Below, one piece after another: positions 6,493 to 16,125 of a DNA stretch of 44,478 nt. Location of the stretch: contig JBIJCJ010000002.1 of the NCBI GenBank assembly GCA_044344765.1, positions 1 through 44,478 of the forward strand. Direction: 5' to 3'. The translations under genes were made by a program, and so were the position numbers. Source of the stretch: Pirellulales bacterium. Lineage in GTDB: Bacteria > Planctomycetota > Planctomycetia > Pirellulales > UBA1268. The notes under the pieces are model-generated. The model was not told the origin of the DNA, did no database searches, and saw only the letters and a program-made list of their open reading frames with translations. The stretch's first letter is position 1. Every line of letters starts with the position of its first letter.

Positions 6493-8073
6493 ATGGCGAG
6501 GTCACAGCGCACCCTGGCGTGTGCGAGATTTCCATCGAGAAGCCGAAAGCGGTCCGGTCGTCTGCCGAGCCGAATCCTCGCCGCGGTCCTGGTGGTCGCG
6601 ACGATGATGGCGCCGATCGCGGCCGCCGCCCCCGCGGCGGGCCCGGTGGTGCGGATCGGCTCCAAGCCGTTCACGGAAGGGATCGTGCTCGGCGAGCTGC
6701 TCGCGGGCGTCGCCCGGCAGGCGGGGGGCGCCGCCGAGCACCGGGCGGCGCTCGGTGGCACGCAGATCGTGTTCGCGGCCCTCGAACGCGGGGAGATCGA
6801 CTGCTACGTCGAGTACAGCGGCACCTTGGAGCGGGAGATCCTCCGCGCCGAAAGCGTCCGGAGCCCCGCGGACGTGGCGGCTGCGCTTGCCCGCCGGGGT
6901 CTTGCCCGGACCGGGCCGCTGGGCTTCGACAACACCTACGCCCTGGGCATGAAGGAGACGGTGGCGGCGCGGGCCGGCATCGAGACGATCTCCGATCTCG
7001 CGGGCCGCGACCTCGCCATCGCGCTCAGCGACGAGTTCGTGCGGCGGGCCGACGGCTGGCCGGCGGTTCGCGATGCCTACGAACTGCGGCAGACCCCGCG
7101 GGTGCTCGATCACGCGCTGGCTTATCGCGGCCTGGAAAGCGGCCACGTCGCGGTCACCGACCTCTACGCCACCGATCCCGAGGTGCGGGCCCACGAGCTG
7201 CGGATCCTGCGGGACGACCGGGGCGTGTTTCGCGAATACAAGGCGTTCGTGCTGTATCGCGCCGACCTCGCGGAGCGGGCGCCGGCATTCCTGGCGGCGC
7301 TCGGGCAGCTCGAGGGGACGATCGATCCGGCGGCGATGCGCGAGATGAACGCCCGGGTGCTGCTCGACGGCGAGCCGGAGCGGACCGTGGCGGCCCGCTT
7401 CCTCCGGGATCGGTTCGGCTGGGAAGTGGCCGACGACACGACGCCCGCCTGGCTGATCGTGGCCCGCGACGTGGGGCGGGCCACGCTCCAGCACCTGGCG
7501 CTCGTGGCCGCGGCATTGATTGCGGCGGTGGCCGTCGCCGTGCCGCTGGGGATATACGCCCATCGCCGGCCGCGGCTGGCCGCCGGCATCCTCGGCGTGG
7601 TCGGCATCCTGCAGACGATTCCGTCGATGGCCGTGCTCGTGTTCATGGTGCCGCTGGTGGGCCTGGGCTGGAAGCCGGCCGTGGTGGCGCTCTTTCTCTA
7701 CGGCCTCCTGCCGATCGTCCGCGGCACGTTCAACGGGCTGGCCGGAATCCCGCAGCAGCTCCGCGAGTCGGCCGAGGTGCTCGGCCTCGACGGGCGTTCC
7801 CGCTTGCGGCTCGTGGAGCTGCCGCTGGCCTCGCGATCGATTCTCGCGGGCATCAAGACGGCGGCCGTGATCGCCGTGGGCACGGCCACGATCGGCGGGC
7901 TGATCGGCGCGGGCGGCTACGGCGAGGCGATCCTGGCCGGAATCCGCCGGGCCGACGTGGGACTGCTCATGCAAGGCGCGGTGCCCGCGGCGGTGCTCGC
8001 CCTGCTGATTCAGGCGGCCTGCGATGGTCTGGAGCGGCTTGTGGTTCCCGCAGGGCTGCGGGCCGGTGGGTAG
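6493..8073 (+). CDS. fused ABC transporter: OpuAC-type substrate-binding domain plus permease (glycine betaine/choline family)
   Basis: The N-terminal half, ...[16 protein letters not shown]...[12 protein letters not shown]..., resembles quaternary-amine binding proteins. The C-terminal half is a 5-6 TM permease with an EAA-like loop ([20 protein letters not shown]). I chose the ATG at 6493 because the upstream part of the ORF is the family-B repeat. Confidence 0.8.
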
Positions 8074-8123
8074 AATCCTCCGCGTCGGGGAAGTCTCAAC
8101 GTGGCGAGAAGTGGTGGCCGGAC

Positions 8124-10637
8124 ATGATCGAGTTTTGTGCGTTTGCGATCGTCGTGCTCGGTGTGCTCGTGGTCCGCATGACCGGCGTGCTGCGCGAAAT
8201 CCAGGAGGCGCAGCGCACCCTGCTCGAGCGGCAGCGGCAGATGGACGCCCTGCTGACGGCGAGTTTCACGGGTCGGGATCAGGCCACGTCTTCCGAGCCG
8301 GCGGTCGTGATCGTGCCCCCGTTCGCCGGGTCCGCCACCCCTGCGCCGATGCCGTCGCCAGTGCCGGCCGCAGAGCCGCCTCCGCTGCCGGCTGTTACGG
8401 CCGCCGCTCCGCAGGCCAAACCGTTCGCCGGTGGGTTCACGGACCTCACGTCCGCCGATCTCGACGTTGCCATTTCCGCACGCGAGGTGGTGCCGGCCGC
8501 GGCCCGCGTCGTCTCGCCGCCACGGCAGCCCTTGCCCCGCGCGGTTCCGAGCCGCTTCGAGACGGCCGCCCGCGACACGCTCGGCAGGATCTGGAACTGG
8601 ATCATCGTCGGTGAGGATCACATCCCGGAGGGGGTTTCCACGGAGTACGCGGTCGCGAGCCAGTGGCTGCTGCGGCTCGGGATCATCGTCCTCGTCGCCG
8701 GCATCGGCTTCTTTCTCAAGTGGTCGATCGACCGCGGCCTGCTCGGGCCCCAGGCCCGCGTGGCCCTCTCCACCGCGGCCGGGCTCGGAATGCTGATCCT
8801 CGGCGCGCGGCTGCTCGGCGGCCGCTACGGAGTGCTGGGCCAAGGCTTCCTCGGCGGCGGCCTGGCCACTCTGTACTTCAGCGTCTTCGCGGCCCACCGG
8901 CTGTTCGGCCTCGTCGACGTCGTCACCGCCTTCGCGCTCATGGCCGCCGTCACCATGCTGGCGGGCGGGATCGCGGTGCGTTTCAACTCGATGCTCGTGG
9001 CCGTGCTCGGGATCATCGGCGGCTACGGCACGCCGCTGATGTTCACGACGGCGGACCCCAACCTGCCGGTCCTGTTCGGCTACCTGCTCGTGCTCGGCTG
9101 CGGCGTGCTGGCGATCTGCTTCTGGCGGAACTGGCCGCTGGTCAACCTGCTGGCGTTCGTGGCGACCTGGTGCCTGGTGCCGCCGGCGCTGGTGCAGTAC
9201 GAGACGAGCCAGTTTCGCGAGGTCTATCCATTCATCGTCGGCTTCTTCGTGCTCTTCTCGACGATGACCTTCCTTTACAAGGTGGTCCGCGGCACGCCCG
9301 CGACGGTCCTCGACCTGTTCGCCCTGTTCGCCAACGCGGCCGTGTTCTTCGGGATCTCCTTCTGGATGGTGGACGACGCCTTCGGCCGGCGGCAGGTGGC
9401 GCTCGTGACGCTCGGCCTGGCCGCCTTCTACACCCTCCACGTGCTCTTCTTCCTCCGGCGCGGGGGCGTGGACCGCGGCCTGCTCGTCTCCTTTCTCGGC
9501 CTCGCCGCCACGTTCGTGGCCGTGACGATGCCGCTGGTGCTCTCGCGGCAGTGGGTCACGGCCAGCTGGGCGATCCAGGCGGTCGTGCTCCTGTGGATGG
9601 CCGAGCGGCTCGAGAGCGGCATCGTGAGACGCATGGGGCTCGCGCTCCTCGGCATCGTGTTCGTGCGGTTCTGCGGCCTTGATCTGGGCCGTACGTTCCT
9701 GCCCGGCGGCAGCGTCGCGGCGGCCGCGGCCGAACTGCCCGTGGGCGGCTACCTGCGGCTCCTCGCCGAGCGGGCGATAGCCTTCGGTATTCCCATCGCG
9801 GCCTTCGGCGTGGCGGCTCGGCTCGTCGGCCGCACGCCGCGGCCCGCCGACCCTGCCAAGTCCGACCGCGGGCACGTCGGTCTCGCCTCATTCCTCTGGC
9901 TCGCCGGGATCGCGGCCCTGCTGTTCTATGTGCACCTTGAAGTCGATCGCACGGCGGAGTTCTTCTTCCCCGCGGCGCGGCTACCGCTGCTGTCGATCGT
10001 CTGGGTCGCCATCGGGGCGATCTTTCTCCGGGAATACGCGGTCGGCGGCAGCTCGTTCGCGTTGGGGCTCGTCGGCTGCGTGGTGATGGCGGTGCTCTTG
10101 AAACTCGTCGCCTGGGACCTGCCGGCCTGGGGCGTGGACGAACGGTTCGTGGCAGGCCCGGGGTACTCGCTGCTCGATGCCGGGCTGCGGGCCCTGGACT
10201 TCGGGGCAGTGATCGCCTTCATGGTGTCGGCCTACGCCGTCACCGGCAGAGCCCGGGCCCGCACGGATGCCCGGCCGCTGCTGGCCGTCGCCTGCCTGGG
10301 CACGCTGTTCGCCTACCTGACCCTGGAGACGAACTCGTTCCTGGCCGCGTATTATCCGGGGTTCCGCGCCGGCGGCGTGTCGATCGTGTGGGCGGTCTTC
10401 GCGCTCGCGCTCGTGCTGGCGGGCATCGCCCGCAACGTCGGGCCGCTCCGGTTGGTCGGGCTCGGGCTGTTCGCGATCGTCTCGGGCAAGGTGTTCCTCC
10501 ACGATCTGGCGAGTCTCGACACGTTCTGGCGGATCGTGGCGTTCATCATCCTCGGCCTGCTGCTGATCGCCGGTTCGTTCGCGTACCTGAAGTATCGCGA
10601 GAAGTTCATGGTCAGGGCCGGGGAGGGGAGGTCATGA
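8124..10637 (+). CDS. large polytopic membrane protein, DUF2339-like
   Basis: N-terminal TM helix, then a coiled segment, a Pro/Ala-rich linker, and about 20 TM helices. This matches the DUF2339 architecture. The ATG at 8124 lies inside the read-through ORF 6348-10637. Confidence 0.7.
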
Positions 10638-11536
10638 GCCGCCCGCATGCGATCCTGATCACCGCGGCGGTTCTTGTCGCCGCGGCCGCGGAGGCCGCCG
10701 CCGGCGGGCGGCGTGGGAAGCCGCTCGTGCTGCCGCCGCTCGAGGCGACGGGCCTCGTCGCGGTGCGGCTCGATGCCGACGTCCATGCCGCCGCCGCCGA
10801 CGGCTACGGCGACCTGCGGATCCTGGATGCTCAGGCCGCCGAGGTTCCCTACATCGTGCGGGACGTGATCACGACGGACCTCTTGATCGGCGGCTTTCGC
10901 GTCGTTCGCGAGCCCGATGAGCGGGCGACGCGGATCACGGTCGATGCCCGCCGGCAGCCCGTCACCGAGTTCACGATCGCCACCGATTCCCGGAACTTCA
11001 GCCGGTCGCTGACGGTGACGCGGCCGGCCGAGCCCGATGGCGACGGGCCACGCCGCCCGCGCAGGCCGATCGCCACGGCCACGATTACACGGATCGACGT
11101 CGCGGGCCTGCGCCGCGAGCAGCTGGCGATCGGGCTGCCCGAGAGCCGCCTGGAGACGTACGAGCTCGTGATCGACGACGGCGACAGCCCGCCACTCGCC
11201 GTGACCGGCGTCACGGCCCGCGGCCCGGCCCGCGAGGTCGTGTTCCTGGCCGAACCGGGCGCGGCCTACCGGCTGGCCTACGGCGGTGAGCTCGCTCCGC
11301 CGCGGTACGACACGGCCGCCATCCGCACGGCGGTTGCCGCCCGGGTGGTCGCGACGCCCGCGACGCTCGGAGCGGAGTCGGTCGTCGCGACGCCACAGCC
11401 CGCGGCCGATCCGCTGTGGCTGCTCGGCGACGGCCGCTTCCAGATCGCCGTGATCGCGACGCTGGCGATCATCCTCGCCGCCGCGCTGTTCCGAGCCGCG
11501 CAGCGGATCGACGCGGCCCCACCATCACCGGAGTGA
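10634..11536 (+). CDS. DUF3999-like secreted/anchored protein
   Basis: Signal peptide, ...[16 protein letters not shown]..., ...[17 protein letters not shown]...[17 protein letters not shown]..., and a C-terminal TM anchor. The ATG overlaps the DUF2339 stop (ATGA). DUF2339/DUF3999 pairing is a common synteny. Confidence 0.55.
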
Positions 11537-11538
11537 CC

Positions 11539-12951
11539 ATGACCGCGACCGCACGGAGGCAGGCGCCGTACGTTTTCTTCGGCCAGACGACGTCGCTGTG
11601 CGGCGAGTGCCTGGCGCTCGTGCCGGCCAAGATCGTGATCGAGGAGGGCCGGGTCTACTACCACAAGCGATGCCGCACCCACGGGCCGCAGAAGGTGCTC
11701 GTGTCCACCGACGCCGCCTACTGGCGGCTGTGCCACGACTACCTCAAGCCGGGCGACCGGCCGCTGGCCTTGCAGACGCACACCGAACGGGGCTGCCCCT
11801 ACGACTGCGGACTCTGCCCTGACCACGAGCAGCACTCGTGCCTGGCACTCATCGACGTCAACGAGGCCTGCAACCTCACCTGCCCGGTCTGCTTCTCCGA
11901 CTCCTCGCCGCAGCGGTCGCTCCACCGGCCGCTGGCCGAGATCGAGCGGATGATGGACGCGCTGGTGCGGAGCGAGGGGGAGCCCGACCTGCTGCAGCTT
12001 TCCGGGGGCGAGCCGACGATCCACCCCGAGATCCTGGAAATCCTCGCGGCGGCCAAGCGGCGGCCGATCCGCCACGTGATGCTCAACACCAACGGCATCC
12101 GCATCGCCGAGGATCCCGAGTTCGTGAAGCGGCTCGCCGATCTGCGGCCGGGGTTCGAGGTCTATTTGCAGTTCGACTCGCTGCGGCCGGAGGCTCACCT
12201 CAATCTCCGCGGCGCGGACCTGACGCGGATCCGCCGCCAGGCCATGGAGAACCTGGAGCGGGCCGGCATCTCCACGACGCTCGTCGTGGTGGTGAAACAG
12301 GGGGTCAACGACGCCGAGATCCCGGCGATCATCGACCACGCCCTCCAGTGGCGGTGCGTCCGCGGCGTCGTCCTCCAGCCGATCCAGGACGCCGGCCGCA
12401 ACGAGGGCTTTGATGCGTCAAAGGATCGTTTTCCCCTCTCCGCCATCCGGCGGCGGATCGTCGATTCCGGCGGCTCGTTCGGGGAAGGCGACATCATCCC
12501 GCTCCCCTGCAATCCGGAGAGCATCGCCATCGGCTACGCCCTGCGGAAGGGAACGCAGATCGCCCCGGTGACCTCGTTCTTTCCCCGGGAGCTGCTCGTC
12601 GAGGCCCTGCCGAATGCGATCACGTTCGAGAAATACCCCGATCTGCACAAGCAGGTGCTCGAGTTCTTCTCGCTCGCGACCGCCGAGTGCAACAACGAGA
12701 AGAAGCTCGCCGAGCTGCTCTGCTGCCTGCCCGAGGTGCCCCTGCCGGCGGGGCTGGGGTATGAAGACACCTTCCGGGTGGTGATCGTGGAGTTCATGGA
12801 CGCCCACAATTTCTGCCTCGGCCGCGTGAAGCGGTCGTGCATCCACTTCGTCACGCCGGAAGAGAAGATCATCCCGTTCGAGACCTACAACCTGTTCTAC
12901 CGCGACGCGGCCGCGCAGGCCCGGATGCGGCGGTCGCTGGAGGGGCGATGA
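11539..12951 (+). CDS. radical SAM enzyme with an N-terminal Cys-rich ribbon and an auxiliary-cluster motif
   Basis: CX3CX2C core CNLTCPVC followed by SGGEPT. N-terminal CGEC...HKRCRTHG. Extra motif GCPYDCGLCPDHEQHSC. Conserved tail ...EFMDAHNFCLGRVKRSCIHF...IPFETYN. The start lies 2 nt after the previous stop. Confidence 0.85.
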   Translation: MTATARRQAPYVFFGQTTSLCGECLALVPAKIVIEEGRVYYHKRCRTHGPQKVLVSTDAAYWRLCHDYLKPGDRPLALQTHTERGCPYDCGLCPDHEQHSCLALIDVNEACNLTCPVCFSDSSPQRSLHRPLAEIERMMDALVRSEGEPDLLQLSGGEPTIHPEILEILAAAKRRPIRHVMLNTNGIRIAEDPEFVKRLADLRPGFEVYLQFDSLRPEAHLNLRGADLTRIRRQAMENLERAGISTTLVVVVKQGVNDAEIPAIIDHALQWRCVRGVVLQPIQDAGRNEGFDASKDRFPLSAIRRRIVDSGGSFGEGDIIPLPCNPESIAIGYALRKGTQIAPVTSFFPRELLVEALPNAITFEKYPDLHKQVLEFFSLATAECNNEKKLAELLCCLPEVPLPAGLGYEDTFRVVIVEFMDAHNFCLGRVKRSCIHFVTPEEKIIPFETYNLFYRDAAAQARMRRSLEGR

Positions 12952-13391
12952 GGGGATTGCTGATCGTGCTCTGTACGTTGGGAACGGTCGCTGCAACGCT
13001 GGCGGGCGGCTGCGGCTTGCTGTTCAGTTTCGCGATGGCGGTGGCGGACCAGAACCGGGGCGAGGCCGCCGGGGGCGCCCTGATGATCGCCCTACCGGTA
13101 CTTGCCGTTACCGGCGCGCTAGCGCTGGCAAACATCGCGCTGATCGCCGCGATCGCCAATGGCCGGGCGCCGCGCCGCAATGTCTGGTTCCTGCTCCTCG
13201 CGATCGTGGACCTCGCCATCGCGAGCGTCCTTGCGGCGGCGGGATTCGCCGGGCAGGGGCCGGTGAACCCGGGCGATGCCTTAACCCTTTTCCTGCCGGT
13301 CATGCTGGCGGTCAAGGGCGGGCTCACGCTCCTGCTTCCCGCGCAGCCGCGCCAGCTGCCACCGGGTGAGAACCCGGAGGAGGCTGCATGA
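12948..13391 (+). CDS. small 4-TM membrane protein, paralog 1
   Basis: MRGLLIVLCTLGTVAATLAGGCGLL.... ATGA overlap with the radical SAM stop. It shares its N-terminus and the ...LAN(I)..., ...RR..., ...D.A.A..., ..VKG.L.. landmarks with the next ORF. Confidence 0.6.
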   Translation: MRGLLIVLCTLGTVAATLAGGCGLLFSFAMAVADQNRGEAAGGALMIALPVLAVTGALALANIALIAAIANGRAPRRNVWFLLLAIVDLAIASVLAAAGFAGQGPVNPGDALTLFLPVMLAVKGGLTLLLPAQPRQLPPGENPEEAA

Positions 13392-13840
13392 GGTGGCTCC
13401 TCGTCGTGCTGACGATGATCGTGGCCCTCGGGGCACTGTTTTCCGGAGGGTGCGCCGTGCTGTCGGTCGGCCAGTACCTTTGGCACGGGCCGCGCGGCGA
13501 GCTTCCGGGCGTGCAGCGGGCCATCGCCTGGATTTCCGCCGGCGTGGGACTCGCGGCCGCCGCGGTGCTGGCCGCCAACATCTGGGTCTTGCTGGCGGCC
13601 TTCGGGCCGCCGTCGCCCCGACGCCGCCTGATCGCGTACGTGCTGGCCTGCATGGACGTCGCCACGGCCGCTGCGGCGCTGGCATGGATCGTGTGGGCCG
13701 ACGGCTGGCACTGGGCTGACTGGCAGTGGTCCTTGCTGGCCAAGGCGGGAGCCGTGGCGCTCGGCGTGAAGGGTGTTCTCATCGGCGCGGTCGTCGGCCG
13801 ATGGTGGGCTTCCGGCACCAGTCGCGTGGGCGATCCGTGA
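13388..13840 (+). CDS. small 4-TM membrane protein, paralog 2
   Basis: MRWLLVVLTMIVALGALFSGGCAVL.... ATGA overlap upstream and GTGA overlap downstream. Confidence 0.6.
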   Translation: MRWLLVVLTMIVALGALFSGGCAVLSVGQYLWHGPRGELPGVQRAIAWISAGVGLAAAAVLAANIWVLLAAFGPPSPRRRLIAYVLACMDVATAAAALAWIVWADGWHWADWQWSLLAKAGAVALGVKGVLIGAVVGRWWASGTSRVGDP

Positions 13841-14550
13841 ACGTCCACACGCAATTCGACATCGCCGCGGCCACCGCCGCGGCGGCGATGACCGTCGCCT
13901 GCTTCTTCTGGCGGCTCAAGGACGCGGCGGCACGGATCGAGCACGCCGGCTTCGGCTACGCCTTCGCCCTCGTGGGCGGTGCGGCCTTGGGCGGCTACGC
14001 GGCGGGCACCGCGAACCTGTGGCTTGCGGGGGAGCCGGGGGTGGCCCGGAGCATCGTGGGGGCGCTCGCCGGGGCGATCGCGGCGATCGAACTCTTCAAG
14101 CGGGCCCGCGGGATCACCGGCTCGACCGGGCTGATCTTCGTGCCGGCCTTCGCCACGAGCGTCGCCATCGGCCGCTGGGGCTGTTTTTATTCGGGGCTCA
14201 CCGACCACACCCACGGCTGCCCCACGACGCTCTCCTGGGGCCACGACTTCGGCGACCAGATTCCCCGCCACGCGGTGCAGCTCTACGAGTCGGCCGCGAT
14301 GGCCGCGTTCCTCATCTTTGCCCTCGTGATGCTCGCCCGCCGTGAGCCGTTCTTCATGAGGAACGGCTTCTACCTGATGGTGTTCTGGTACGCGGCGCAG
14401 CGGTTCGGCTGGGAGTTTCTCAAGCCCTATGCATCGCTGCTTGGGCCGCTCAACCTTTTCCATCTCGTCTGTCTGGGGCTGATGGGGTACGCCATCTGGA
14501 TGCTGCGGCGAAGTCGGCGGTCACAGGCCGCCTTACGAGGAAGGCCGTGA
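13837..14550 (+). CDS. divergent prolipoprotein diacylglyceryl transferase (Lgt)-family membrane protein
   Basis: GRWGCFYSG in place of the canonical GRxGNFxNxE, and RHAVQLYES in place of HPxQLYE. About 7 TM helices. The GTG start at 13837 overlaps the upstream stop. Confidence 0.65.
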   Translation: MNVHTQFDIAAATAAAAMTVACFFWRLKDAAARIEHAGFGYAFALVGGAALGGYAAGTANLWLAGEPGVARSIVGALAGAIAAIELFKRARGITGSTGLIFVPAFATSVAIGRWGCFYSGLTDHTHGCPTTLSWGHDFGDQIPRHAVQLYESAAMAAFLIFALVMLARREPFFMRNGFYLMVFWYAAQRFGWEFLKPYASLLGPLNLFHLVCLGLMGYAIWMLRRSRRSQAALRGRP

Positions 14551-14761: not shown

Positions 14762-15343
14762 ATGGTCCGCACCCCTTCCACGATGCTGCCGCTGGGCACC
14801 GTCGCCCCCGAGTTCGAACTCCCCAACGTCGACGGCCGAATCGTCGACTATGCCGCCGCCGCCGGCCCGCGGGGCACGGTCGTGATGTTCATCTGCAACC
14901 ACTGCCCGTTCGTGAAGCACGTGGCCGACGAACTGGCCCGGCTCGGCCACGAGTACCTGCCCCGCGGCATCGGCTTCGCCGCCATCAGCTCCAACGACGT
15001 CGCCAGCCACCCGGCCGACTCGCCCGAGCAGATGGTGCACGAGGCCGAGGAGCGGGGCTATCCGTTCCCGTATCTCTACGACGAGACGCAGGAGGTGGCG
15101 AAGGCCTATCACGCCGCCTGCACGCCCGACTTCTACCTCTTCGACGCCGACCGCAGGCTCGTGTATCGCGGCCAGCTCGACCCGAGCCGTCCGGGCGGCG
15201 ACCTCCCGGTGACGGGCCGCGACCTGCGGGCCGCGATCGACGCGCTACTCGCCGGTCAGTCGCCGGTGGCCGCGCAGATCCCGAGCCTGGGCTGCAACAT
15301 CAAGTGGAAGCCGGGCAATCACCCGGCCTACTTCAATCCGTGA
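14762..15343 (+). CDS. thioredoxin-fold protein (AhpC/TSA-like thiol-disulfide oxidoreductase)
   Basis: APEFELPNVDG..., CNHCP redox motif, ...TPDFYLFD.... Confidence 0.8.
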   Translation: MVRTPSTMLPLGTVAPEFELPNVDGRIVDYAAAAGPRGTVVMFICNHCPFVKHVADELARLGHEYLPRGIGFAAISSNDVASHPADSPEQMVHEAEERGYPFPYLYDETQEVAKAYHAACTPDFYLFDADRRLVYRGQLDPSRPGGDLPVTGRDLRAAIDALLAGQSPVAAQIPSLGCNIKWKPGNHPAYFNP

Positions 15344-15358: not shown

Positions 15359-15622
15359 TCACCGCGGACGCGGGGCGTCGCCGGGGCGGGCGGGGCCGCG
15401 GTTGGCGAACTTGCCGATGTCCTGCGTGTCGCCCGGCTCGAGCCGCGAGGCCCGCAGGTTCTCCCGCTGGATCGCCTCGTACACCTCCTGGCGGTGCACA
15501 GGAACCTCGGACGGGGCGTTGATTCCGAGCCGGACTTTGTCTCCCCGGATGTCCACGATCGTGACGACGATGTTGTCGCCGATCATGATGCTTTCGTCAC
15601 GTTGTCTGGAGAGCACGAGCAT
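15359..15622 (-). CDS. csrA: carbon storage regulator CsrA (with a ~25 aa C-terminal extension)
   Basis: MLVLSRQRDESIMIGDNIVVTIVDIRGDKVRLGINAPSEVPVHRQEVYE matches the CsrA signature. Confidence 0.9.
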   Translation of the reverse strand: MLVLSRQRDESIMIGDNIVVTIVDIRGDKVRLGINAPSEVPVHRQEVYEAIQRENLRASRLEPGDTQDIGKFANRGPARPGDAPRPR

Positions 15623-15684: not shown

Positions 15685-16125
15685 TTATGCGCTCTTCCTG
15701 AGCGGCGGACGGTCTTGATTGAGTTCGTATTGCAGAGGCAGCTCGCCGCTCGCAACGACTTGACGGCCGGTGCGGGCTTCGAGGTTGATGACGATCGGCG
15801 CTTTCAAATTGAGCGTGAGGGTTTTGCCGTTGGTGCCGACCACCAGCACGACCTGGGCCTGGCGGATGTCGGCGACGGCGAGGGGGGTGAGCTCGCTACG
15901 CGGGATCCGCACCTGGTAGTCGGGGACGAAGCGGCGCGGGCTGACCACCGCGATGGCCACGTCGCCGCGGGTCGTGCTCTGCAGCCAGCCGAGCGCGTCG
16001 TTGGTGGCGTCGGCGAGCAGGGCCCAGTCGCGGCAATCCTCGAGGCCGGGCAGTCCGCTGGCGAAGTGGATGACGTCGCCCATGTCGACGTCGATCCGTC
16101 CGAACCTGGTGGTGTTGATGCGCAT
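15685..16125 (-). CDS. fliW: flagellar assembly factor FliW (CsrA antagonist)
   Basis: ...FASGLPGLED...W..LQS....D.AIAVVSP..F.PDY.....LNLKAPIVIN... matches the FliW family. It lies directly upstream of csrA. Confidence 0.85.
   Translation of the reverse strand: MRINTTRFGRIDVDMGDVIHFASGLPGLEDCRDWALLADATNDALGWLQSTTRGDVAIAVVSPRRFVPDYQVRIPRSELTPLAVADIRQAQVVLVVGTNGKTLTLNLKAPIVINLEARTGRQVVASGELPLQYELNQDRPPLRKSA

Follow-up and report, generated by a model that had tools for sequence, protein, structure and literature searches.

A coupled operon led by a radical SAM gene

The window studied here, the whole stretch of 44,478 nucleotides (nt) from a Pirellulales bacterium (contig JBIJCJ010000002.1 of assembly GCA_044344765.1, positions 1 to 44,478), carries at 11539..12951 on the forward strand a gene for a protein of the radical S-adenosylmethionine (SAM) type, 470 amino acids (aa) long and with no predicted transmembrane (TM) helix. 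The open reading frame (ORF) is a real, clean gene of 470 codons: an upstream stop ends 2 nt before its ATG at 11539, and a GGAG lies 8 nt ahead of the start. Three further genes follow on the same strand, encoding small membrane protein 1 (12948..13391, 147 aa), small membrane protein 2 (13388..13840, 150 aa) and a divergent paralog of the Lgt family (13837..14550, 237 aa, GTG start). Each start codon overlaps the preceding stop codon, the junctions reading ATGA, ATGA and GTGA in this order, and from this arrangement the four genes are predicted to be translationally coupled. An earlier note, made from the letters of the window alone, had spoken of a membrane operon around the radical SAM gene. 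The operon is real and more specific than that term conveys, with a conserved Lgt paralog and small Cys-bearing membrane proteins as partners.

That note had also assigned four cysteine features to 11539-12951, and all four were found in the ORF. An N-terminal rubredoxin-like ribbon occupies residues 14-56 (11578..11706, forward strand) and is matched by PF23545, Zn_ribbon_HMPTM (E = 6.1e-17). Its layout is C21-x2-C24-x20-C45-x2-H48, the spacing between C24 and C45 being x20 and not x21 as previously written, and it is identical in spacing to the rubredoxin-like iron site of GDGT-MAS, C9X2C12X20C33X2H36 (PMC9433317). In an alignment of the window protein with 70 homologues (A3; 14 close relatives and 56 full-length cluster representatives), C21, C24 and C45 are invariant and H48 is present in at least 90% of the sequences. 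Further along lies an N-terminal auxiliary [4Fe-4S] motif, C86-x3-C90-x2-C93-PDH96 plus H99 and C101 (11794..11841, forward strand), which reads GC86PYDC90GLC93PDH96EQH99SC101 and is invariant in the clade of the window protein. It aligns to GCPYDCGLCPNH of GDGT-MAS, and its first part, GC86PYDC90GLC93PDH96, corresponds to the [4Fe-4S]N site of that enzyme (C73, C77, C80 plus a conserved His).

The canonical CNLTCPVC cluster motif was correctly recognized in the note; it stands at C111-x3-C115-x2-C118 (11869..11892, forward strand) and is invariant across the 71 sequences. The Radical_SAM profile PF04055 matches at E = 6.2e-23, with 82.2 bits against a gathering threshold of 29.5. By its CX3CX2C motif and this match, the protein is assigned to the radical SAM superfamily. 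An SGGEPT motif is likewise invariant. Judged by the Pfam E values and by that of the structural homologue described below, the cysteine features are far beyond chance.

Kinship with GDGT-MAS, Tes and TrsS

The only strong match in a PDB sequence search was GDGT-MAS/MJ0619 (7TOL, E = 1.9e-64), aligned in two blocks (residues 16-324 and 387-458). Tes/GDGT-MAS and MJ0619 had been treated as separate enzymes in the note; GDGT-MAS and MJ0619 are one protein. An AlphaFold 2 (AF2) model of the radical SAM protein, built from the 71-sequence alignment, reached a predicted local distance difference test score (pLDDT) of 88.1 and a predicted TM-score (pTM) of 0.88; an earlier run on a shallow alignment, in which all homologues were at least 72% identical to the window protein, gave a pLDDT of 54 and was discarded. 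Foldseek aligned the model to 7TOL and 7TOM with TM-scores of 0.80 and 0.79, and its other PDB matches (SuiB, SkfB, MoaA, viperin) covered the generic core only, with TM ≤0.41. Sequence and model together place the window protein within the Tes/GDGT-MAS/TrsS superfamily (COG1964-type, Zn_ribbon_HMPTM plus radical SAM), and its predicted fold and three of its four metal sites match those of GDGT-MAS.

The COG1964-type or Tes assignment of the note stands at this superfamily level, at which 7TOL and the TrsS and Tes models are the best matches; the protein is no Tes orthologue. In a profile search against known families, TrsS and Tes were the best NCBIfam models, both below cut-off: the TrsS equivalog NF045646 scored 297.5 bits against 490, and the Tes equivalog NF045702 263.7 bits against 450. 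True TrsS representatives score 490-595 bits and true Tes representatives 480-610. The TrsS alignment is nonetheless the best of the NCBIfam matches and runs uninterrupted over residues 16-456 (profile positions 2-435 of 441).

A word-index search returned at least 8000 clusters, and the best 120 matches were all 72-98% identical to the query. HMMER over 1.84 billion cluster representatives retrieved 653 proteins at E ≤ 1e-30; beyond the 50% cluster to which the window protein belongs, the closest representative is only 49% identical. Within alignment A3, five sequences reach the TrsS cut-off (P0222, P0240, P0243, P0227, P0249), and P0252 and P0255 reach that of Tes. A rough neighbour-joining tree places the TrsS and Tes groups next to each other, together with MJ0619, inside a large group that shares a C-terminal Cys-Cys...Cys arrangement. 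The window protein has another place in the tree: it joins its relatives from Alphaproteobacteria first and P0121 and P0123 next. Placed beside Tes in this way, the window clade is separate from Tes/MJ0619, and by scores and tree the enzyme is neither Tes nor TrsS but a member of a clade of its own.

These results bear on two readings outside membrane lipids. TrsS-like or organometalloid (Se/As) chemistry would fit the full-length TrsS match at 297.5 bits, and some sister clades lie beside ArsP_1, MIP and methyltransferase genes. This score is below the TrsS cut-off of 490, and the five true TrsS proteins cluster by Tes, far from the window clade. The gene has no in-frame TGA or selenocysteine, and neither the module of the window nor the alphaproteobacterial loci were found to contain Se or As genes, so that we regard such chemistry as very unlikely. 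Many homologues, for their part, carry the JGI name of a pterin C-methyltransferase (7,8-dihydro-6-hydroxymethylpterin dimethyltransferase), and the Pfam name HMPTM stems from the old MJ0619 annotation. Structural and biochemical evidence has since led to the re-assignment of MJ0619 as GDGT-MAS, and the authors of that work were unable to corroborate the earlier activity (PMC9433317). For this founding member the pterin label is effectively refuted. The conserved neighbourhood holds no pterin or tetrahydromethanopterin (H4MPT) genes, and a pterin methyltransferase is extremely improbable.

As a separate observation on this superfamily, positions 1-369 of locus L090, upstream of the homologue P0182, encode the C terminus of another Tes-like protein (...FIPACAYNLFYR), a sign that this organism has Tes-like paralogs in tandem.

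A re-wired C-terminal cluster site

The fourth cysteine feature, the conserved tail, proved to be only partly that of Tes: the scaffold ending in IPFETYN is there, and key positions of the C-terminal cluster differ. The tail reads EFMDAHNFC426LGRVKRSC434IHF...IPFE448TYN and belongs to a remodelled auxiliary-cluster region at 12688..12891 on the forward strand (C384, C395, C396, C426, C434; V417, S433, F437, E448), as delineated by alignment. With MJ0619 numbering mapped as chain number minus 20 (an offset checked on C9, M439 and Y459), Met439 corresponds to V417, Tyr459 to F437, C438 to I416, C455 to S433, C456 to C434 and C470 to E448. Of the MJ0619 trio C455/C456/C470, itself deduced from the alignment, the window protein thus keeps C434 only. 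Most other bacterial representatives keep the equivalents of all three, often with His at column 417.

The window clade has its own invariant cysteines, namely C395, C396, C426 and C434, plus C384, C324 and C273. In relatives with 49% identity, C395/C396 are already present and C455 and C470 already lost. From this pattern, C395, C396, C426 and C384 would form an alternative invariant set at a predicted re-wired C-terminal cluster site. In GDGT-MAS, Met439 is the labile ligand of [4Fe-4S]C; it and Tyr459 are fully conserved in 1000 archaeal homologues, and the M439A and Y459F variants stay active (PMC9433317). Because these variants retain activity, V417 and F437 lower the claim of orthology and not the claim of chemistry. 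GDGT-MAS parks its first substrate radical at the C-terminal cluster in the form of a C-S bond (PMC9433317), which makes the C-terminal site the likeliest part of the window enzyme to set the final bond made.

A second structural difference concerns the interval between the two 7TOL-aligned blocks, 62 residues in the window protein against 94 in MJ0619 (about 32 fewer). In GDGT-MAS, the corresponding helical region builds the second lipid pocket. The AF2 model is of low confidence nowhere but at residues 376-404 (pLDDT <50). The scores below both cut-offs, the separate clade, the loss of Met439 and Tyr459, the re-wired C-terminal site and the shorter lipid-pocket region are the reasons for which we do not consider the protein a Tes orthologue.

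The same differences weigh on the idea of a true bacterial membrane-spanning-lipid synthase that joins two free phospholipids into a product of the diabolic-acid type or of the branched glycerol dialkyl glycerol tetraether (brGDGT) type, with the Lgt paralog and the small proteins as a dock or lipid-presenting accessory. In its favour, the enzyme has fold and cofactor layout in common with GDGT-MAS, a role in brGDGT synthesis has been suggested for bacterial homologues of Tes (PMC8941075), and membrane partners fit access to lipids. However, the protein reaches 263.7 bits against the 450 demanded of Tes and lies outside the Tes clade; V417 and F437 stand in place of Met439 and Tyr459, two of the three C-terminal cysteines are gone, and the second-lipid-pocket region has about 32 residues fewer. 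Nor would this reading account for the invariant Cys in the small proteins. The hosts include well-studied aerobes such as Bradyrhizobium japonicum, and we know of no report of membrane-spanning diacids or tetraethers in aerobes of this kind. Tes homologues are, in addition, absent from most known producers of iso-diabolic acid (PMC13159169). Taken together, this evidence makes such a synthase unlikely.

A conserved Lgt paralog accompanies the enzyme

Lgt moves the diacylglyceryl group of phosphatidylglycerol to the thiol of a Cys that ends a signal-peptide-like hydrophobic segment. The Lgt-family protein of the window operon matches PF01790 (LGT) with 60.5 bits against a threshold of 24.9 and reaches only 22.4 bits with the Lgt equivalog TIGR00544, whose cut-off is 118.9; being so far below it, the protein is a paralog and not the housekeeping enzyme. 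A PDB sequence search with the paralog gave no match.

Conservation of the pairing was assessed in a set of 86 loci (85 fetched plus the window), queried with an Lgt-like neighbour. A same-strand Lgt-family ORF lies beside the radical SAM gene in 83 of them, in two phyla, and in the three loci without a match the contig ends at the radical SAM gene. The pairing was also found beside relatives with 49% identity (P0121, P0126) and beside a 38% one (P0139). None was found beside P0127, P0135 and P0151, whose neighbours are instead CutA1, DsbD-like plus methyltransferase, and O-methyltransferase, ArsP_1, MMPL and MIP proteins; a 185-aa neighbour of P0127 was tested and showed no likeness to Lgt.

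Aligned to E. coli Lgt (b2828), the paralogs keep G104, G108, G142, R143, G145, G150, E202, Y235 and R239, of which R143 and R239 are essential in Lgt according to structural work. They replace H103 (V in the window), and N146 has become Cys in 7 of the 7 examined.

Small membrane proteins with an invariant cysteine

The third component is formed by one to three small ORFs beside the radical SAM-Lgt pair, with a median length of about 91 aa and a hydrophobic N-terminal segment that ends in a Cys motif. Both copies in the window have about four TM helices; small membrane protein 1, with an MR n-region, carries the motif TLAGGC22GLLF, and small membrane protein 2 carries ALFSGGC22AVL. Each begins with M-R, continues with about 19 hydrophobic residues into (A/S)-G-G-C22 and then has three more predicted helices. 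In sequence terms, M-R followed by a hydrophobic run and G-G-C22 resembles the anatomy of a lipoprotein signal peptide. Measured against the lipobox [LVI][ASTVI][GAS]C, positions -1 and -2 of the window copies fit and -3 does not.

Across the locus set, a search pattern for the lipobox-like motif L-[LF]-[PAS]-G-x-C has matches on the same strand within 2 kb of the pair in 65 of the 86 loci. A control over 541 kb of flanking sequence in six frames yielded four matches, all in a NuoM-like protein. A logo of 93 unique copies has L at -5 (76%), L/F at -4, P/A/S at -3, G at -2 and G/L/A at -1, followed after the Cys by A/S/G at +1, L at +2, L at +3 and F at +4 (57%), with G at -9 in 66%. Several of these conserved positions, such as +4 F and -9 G, were not fixed by the search pattern. 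The motif is distinct from the lipobox (in Bradyrhizobium, -1 is L or I), which would explain the need for a dedicated Lgt paralog.

No specific Pfam or NCBIfam family was matched by the small proteins, nor by the Lgt paralog beyond the LGT family, and sub-threshold hairpin-type matches (e.g. Phage_holin_3_6, E = 0.0014) were set aside as noise from hydrophobic composition. Many small proteins of the Bradyrhizobium type (28 of the 93 copies, e.g. L083 7443-7942) have another, semi-conserved Cys about 18 residues before the motif Cys, in the context R-[SG]-G-C-[LV]-T-A-L. It is situated at the cytoplasmic end of TM1 and would be reachable from the cytoplasm.

Small genes that are short, tandem and paralogous, that stand beside a radical SAM gene and share one invariant Cys, recall systems that make ribosomally synthesized and post-translationally modified peptides (RiPPs). 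The small membrane proteins would then be the direct substrates of the enzyme, for example for a thioether or cross-link at the Cys, with the Lgt paralog independent or a scaffold. The RiPP maturases SuiB and SkfB are indeed the closest structural neighbours of the core once GDGT-MAS is set aside, but they match the generic radical SAM core only (TMq ≤0.41), and the full-length fold is that of a lipid enzyme. A Pfam scan of the radical SAM protein detected neither a RiPP recognition element (RRE) nor a SPASM-type domain, and the motif Cys, about two-thirds of the way through TM1 towards the periplasmic side, would be hard to reach from the cytoplasm. We therefore think a RiPP-like maturase quite unlikely.

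Hosts and spread of the module

The window derives from a freshwater planktonic member of the Pirellulales. Its best genome match, 94% identical, is a metagenome-assembled genome (MAG) from a lake, and the locus was found in lake-water metagenomes. The same clade is present in many Alphaproteobacteria, at 61-77% identity to the window protein. Cultured aerobes that carry it include Bradyrhizobium japonicum, B. liaoningense, B. canariense and Rhodoplanes elegans, as well as Dongia sedimenti, Desertibaculum subflavum and Alitabrizicola rongguiensis; it is also present in MAGs classified as Reyranella and Phenylobacterium.

Gene order differs between the two phyla, being radical SAM-small-small-Lgt in the window and other Pirellulales and Lgt-radical SAM-small in Alphaproteobacteria (L001, L004, L009-L085). 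Taken with this difference in gene order, the 77% identity between Pirellulales and Hyphomicrobiales proteins suggests that the module as a whole has moved laterally between the phyla. One locus (L007) encodes a radical SAM protein 88% identical to that of the window in a Pirellulales-type neighbourhood and was deposited as "uncultured Candidatus Kuenenia sp."; this label is probably a binning or labelling error.

Genes around the module

Upstream of the radical SAM gene in the window, a gene for a DUF3999-like membrane-anchored protein (10634..11536, forward strand) ends 2 nt before the ATG. It is coupled through an ATGA at 10634 to a gene for a DUF2339 polytopic membrane protein at about 8004-10637, also on the forward strand. 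Most of the 1429-aa ORF listed from 6348 is GC-rich read-through, and its Pfam match begins at ORF residue 772. DUF2339 and DUF3999 were considered as members of the module and rejected, neither being detected in the other 85 loci; their arrangement with the radical SAM module looks like a local fusion of two operons.

Downstream, at 14762..15343 on the forward strand, Pfam identifies an AhpC/TSA-type thioredoxin-fold protein with a CNHC motif. Its gene stands beside the module in loci of the Pirellulales type only (the window, L002, L003, L006 and L008) and is absent from the alphaproteobacterial loci. The protein is possibly an accessory thiol reductase that keeps the thiols of the module reduced, or it may be unrelated. 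A CsrA-FliW pair follows directly downstream (15359-15622 and 15685-16125, both on the reverse strand), and the window has the order AhpC/TSA, CsrA, FliW, LptF/G in common with the related Pirellulales-type contigs L002 and L003.

In the Bradyrhizobium loci (L045-L084), the module has a gene for a Crp/Fnr-family regulator on one side (18 loci) and typA on the other (29 loci, among them some of other Hyphomicrobiales). Neither was retained as part of the module, the arrangement being local synteny of the Bradyrhizobiaceae only. The Crp/Fnr neighbour hints at oxygen- or redox-dependent expression.

More distant neighbourhoods differ further. At the locus of the 38% relative P0139 (L088), a protein with an ICMT/PEMT domain follows the pair, and the adjacent small protein ends in ...AGVVCY*. 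ICMT enzymes methylate C-terminal S-lipidated cysteines. The distant clades at L088 and at L093 (P0151) stand among an ArsP_1 permease, a Sulf_transp/ICMT fusion, an MMPL exporter, an MIP channel and methyltransferases. They represent distinct pathways on the same scaffold, possibly of an organometalloid or exported-lipid kind.

A proposed membrane-lipid module

We propose, with a rough probability of 40%, that the radical SAM protein serves as catalytic subunit in a conserved three-part module of bacterial membranes that acts on diacylglyceryl tails handled by the Lgt paralog. The cytoplasmic, GDGT-MAS-like enzyme would cleave SAM, and the resulting 5'-deoxyadenosyl radical would take a hydrogen from an unactivated alkyl carbon of a lipid lying in a hydrophobic tunnel. 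GDGT-MAS, for comparison, removes hydrogen from a glycerolipid tail at its terminal carbon and resolves the radical by way of its C-terminal cluster, as found with a synthetic archaetidylglycerol substrate (PMC9433317). The Lgt paralog would bind phosphatidylglycerol and move its diacylglyceryl group onto a thiol, or at least bind the lipid beside the Cys. One to three small hairpin or 4-TM proteins would present the acceptor thiol, which would be the invariant motif Cys. The radical SAM enzyme would then alter the diacylglyceryl tails by tail-to-tail C-C coupling, cyclisation or C-S capture, through its re-wired C-terminal Fe-S site.

The scheme starts from what was observed directly: fold and metal-site motifs of the enzyme, structure of the operon and conservation of its synteny, the Lgt residues retained by the paralog, and the Cys motif. 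In its favour we count the synteny with Lgt, the residues that the paralog keeps, the ORFs with the Cys motif, the gene overlaps and a hint from the ICMT gene near P0139. From these we infer the substrate, the acceptor, the order of steps and the product of the module. A more specific form of the proposal is a protein-lipid conjugation system, in which the Lgt paralog would load an intramembrane Cys and the radical SAM enzyme would cross-link or cyclise the tails or capture a tail radical on the thiol. We consider this version possible, though on balance rather doubtful. If true, a protein-anchored macrocyclic or membrane-spanning lipid would exist in ordinary aerobic Alphaproteobacteria and Planctomycetes.

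Several points weigh against the three-part module. The active site of Lgt faces the periplasmic leaflet and the radical SAM enzyme is cytoplasmic, so that the geometry of the hand-over is the main physical objection. The paralog is without H103 and N146 and may not be a transferase. As for the small proteins, 21 of the 86 loci gave no match to the Cys-motif pattern, the Bradyrhizobium-type motif LLLPG[LI]C has at -1 an L or I that the canonical lipobox does not admit, and 6-10 hydrophobic residues follow the motif Cys, unlike in normal lipoproteins. The C-terminal cluster region includes a stretch of low model confidence (residues 376-404, pLDDT <50). The function of bacterial Tes homologues was explicitly unconfirmed as of 2025 (PMC11868695). 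Lastly, other clades of the superfamily lie beside methyltransferases, ArsP_1, MMPL and CutA1. Such unrelated neighbours indicate that the fold does not dictate a lipid substrate, and given these quite different gene contexts, a lipid product for the window clade does not follow from homology. This qualifies the coupling or methylation of membrane lipids foreseen in the earlier note: membrane-spanning or branched lipids are one possibility that homology does not imply, and no evidence of methylation was found.

Bacterial homologues of Tes are known and have been proposed as brGDGT synthases, a role explicitly untested (PMC8941075, PMC11868695, PMC13459092). Our literature search, which did not cover the source paper of TrsS, found no paper linking an Lgt paralog or Cys-motif proteins to Tes-like enzymes. 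A familiar catalytic scaffold here carries a re-wired auxiliary site and comes with a conserved set of partners that is, as far as the literature search reached, undescribed. The conserved partners point to an undescribed membrane-lipid or protein-lipidation system, and the module may show that Lgt-type chemistry has another use besides classical lipoproteins. The partnership of Lgt paralog and Cys-hairpin proteins offers a concrete hypothesis for one large bacterial branch that can be tested in genetically tractable hosts.

There is also a consequence for biomarker studies. To nominate producers of brGDGTs, which serve as palaeoclimate biomarkers, bacterial homologues of Tes are at present counted with BLAST thresholds (E < 1e-50, identity >20-30%), and Planctomycetota are among the nominees (PMC8941075, PMC11868695). 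The window clade passes these thresholds, with E = 1.9e-64 and about 30% identity to MJ0619. As it does so and yet differs at the cluster site, in its hosts and in its partners, such gene counts likely over-call the potential for tetraether synthesis.

Comparison with known systems

GDGT-MAS/Tes is the nearest characterized relative. It shares with the window protein the overall four-domain fold, the ribbon site, the [4Fe-4S]N site, the radical SAM motif, SGGEPT and the C-terminal FxD...C-I-H...IPFxTYN scaffold, at about 30% identity between the window protein and GDGT-MAS/MJ0619. TrsS shares a similar length and the N-terminal metal motifs. It differs from the window clade in keeping the cysteines at C433/C448 and Met at column 417 and in clustering beside Tes, and, unlike TrsS, the window protein has no selenocysteine. 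The Mss proteins of Thermotoga and Thermoanaerobacter are radical SAM enzymes for which Tes-like coupling of lipid tails has been proposed, and we liken the window enzyme to them by description only; they are members of another radical SAM family, described as having no more than a remote relationship to Tes, and their hosts are anaerobes (PMC13159169).

On the side of the partner, E. coli Lgt and the paralog share the Pfam LGT family and an RHPxQLYE-like motif. Their identity is 20-23%, the head domain is shortened in the paralog, and the paralog of the window clade is without the first TM helix and Y26 of E. coli Lgt. Archaea are without any Lgt homologue (PMC12462473), unlike the window clade, in which the radical SAM enzyme is paired with an Lgt paralog in 83 of the 86 loci.

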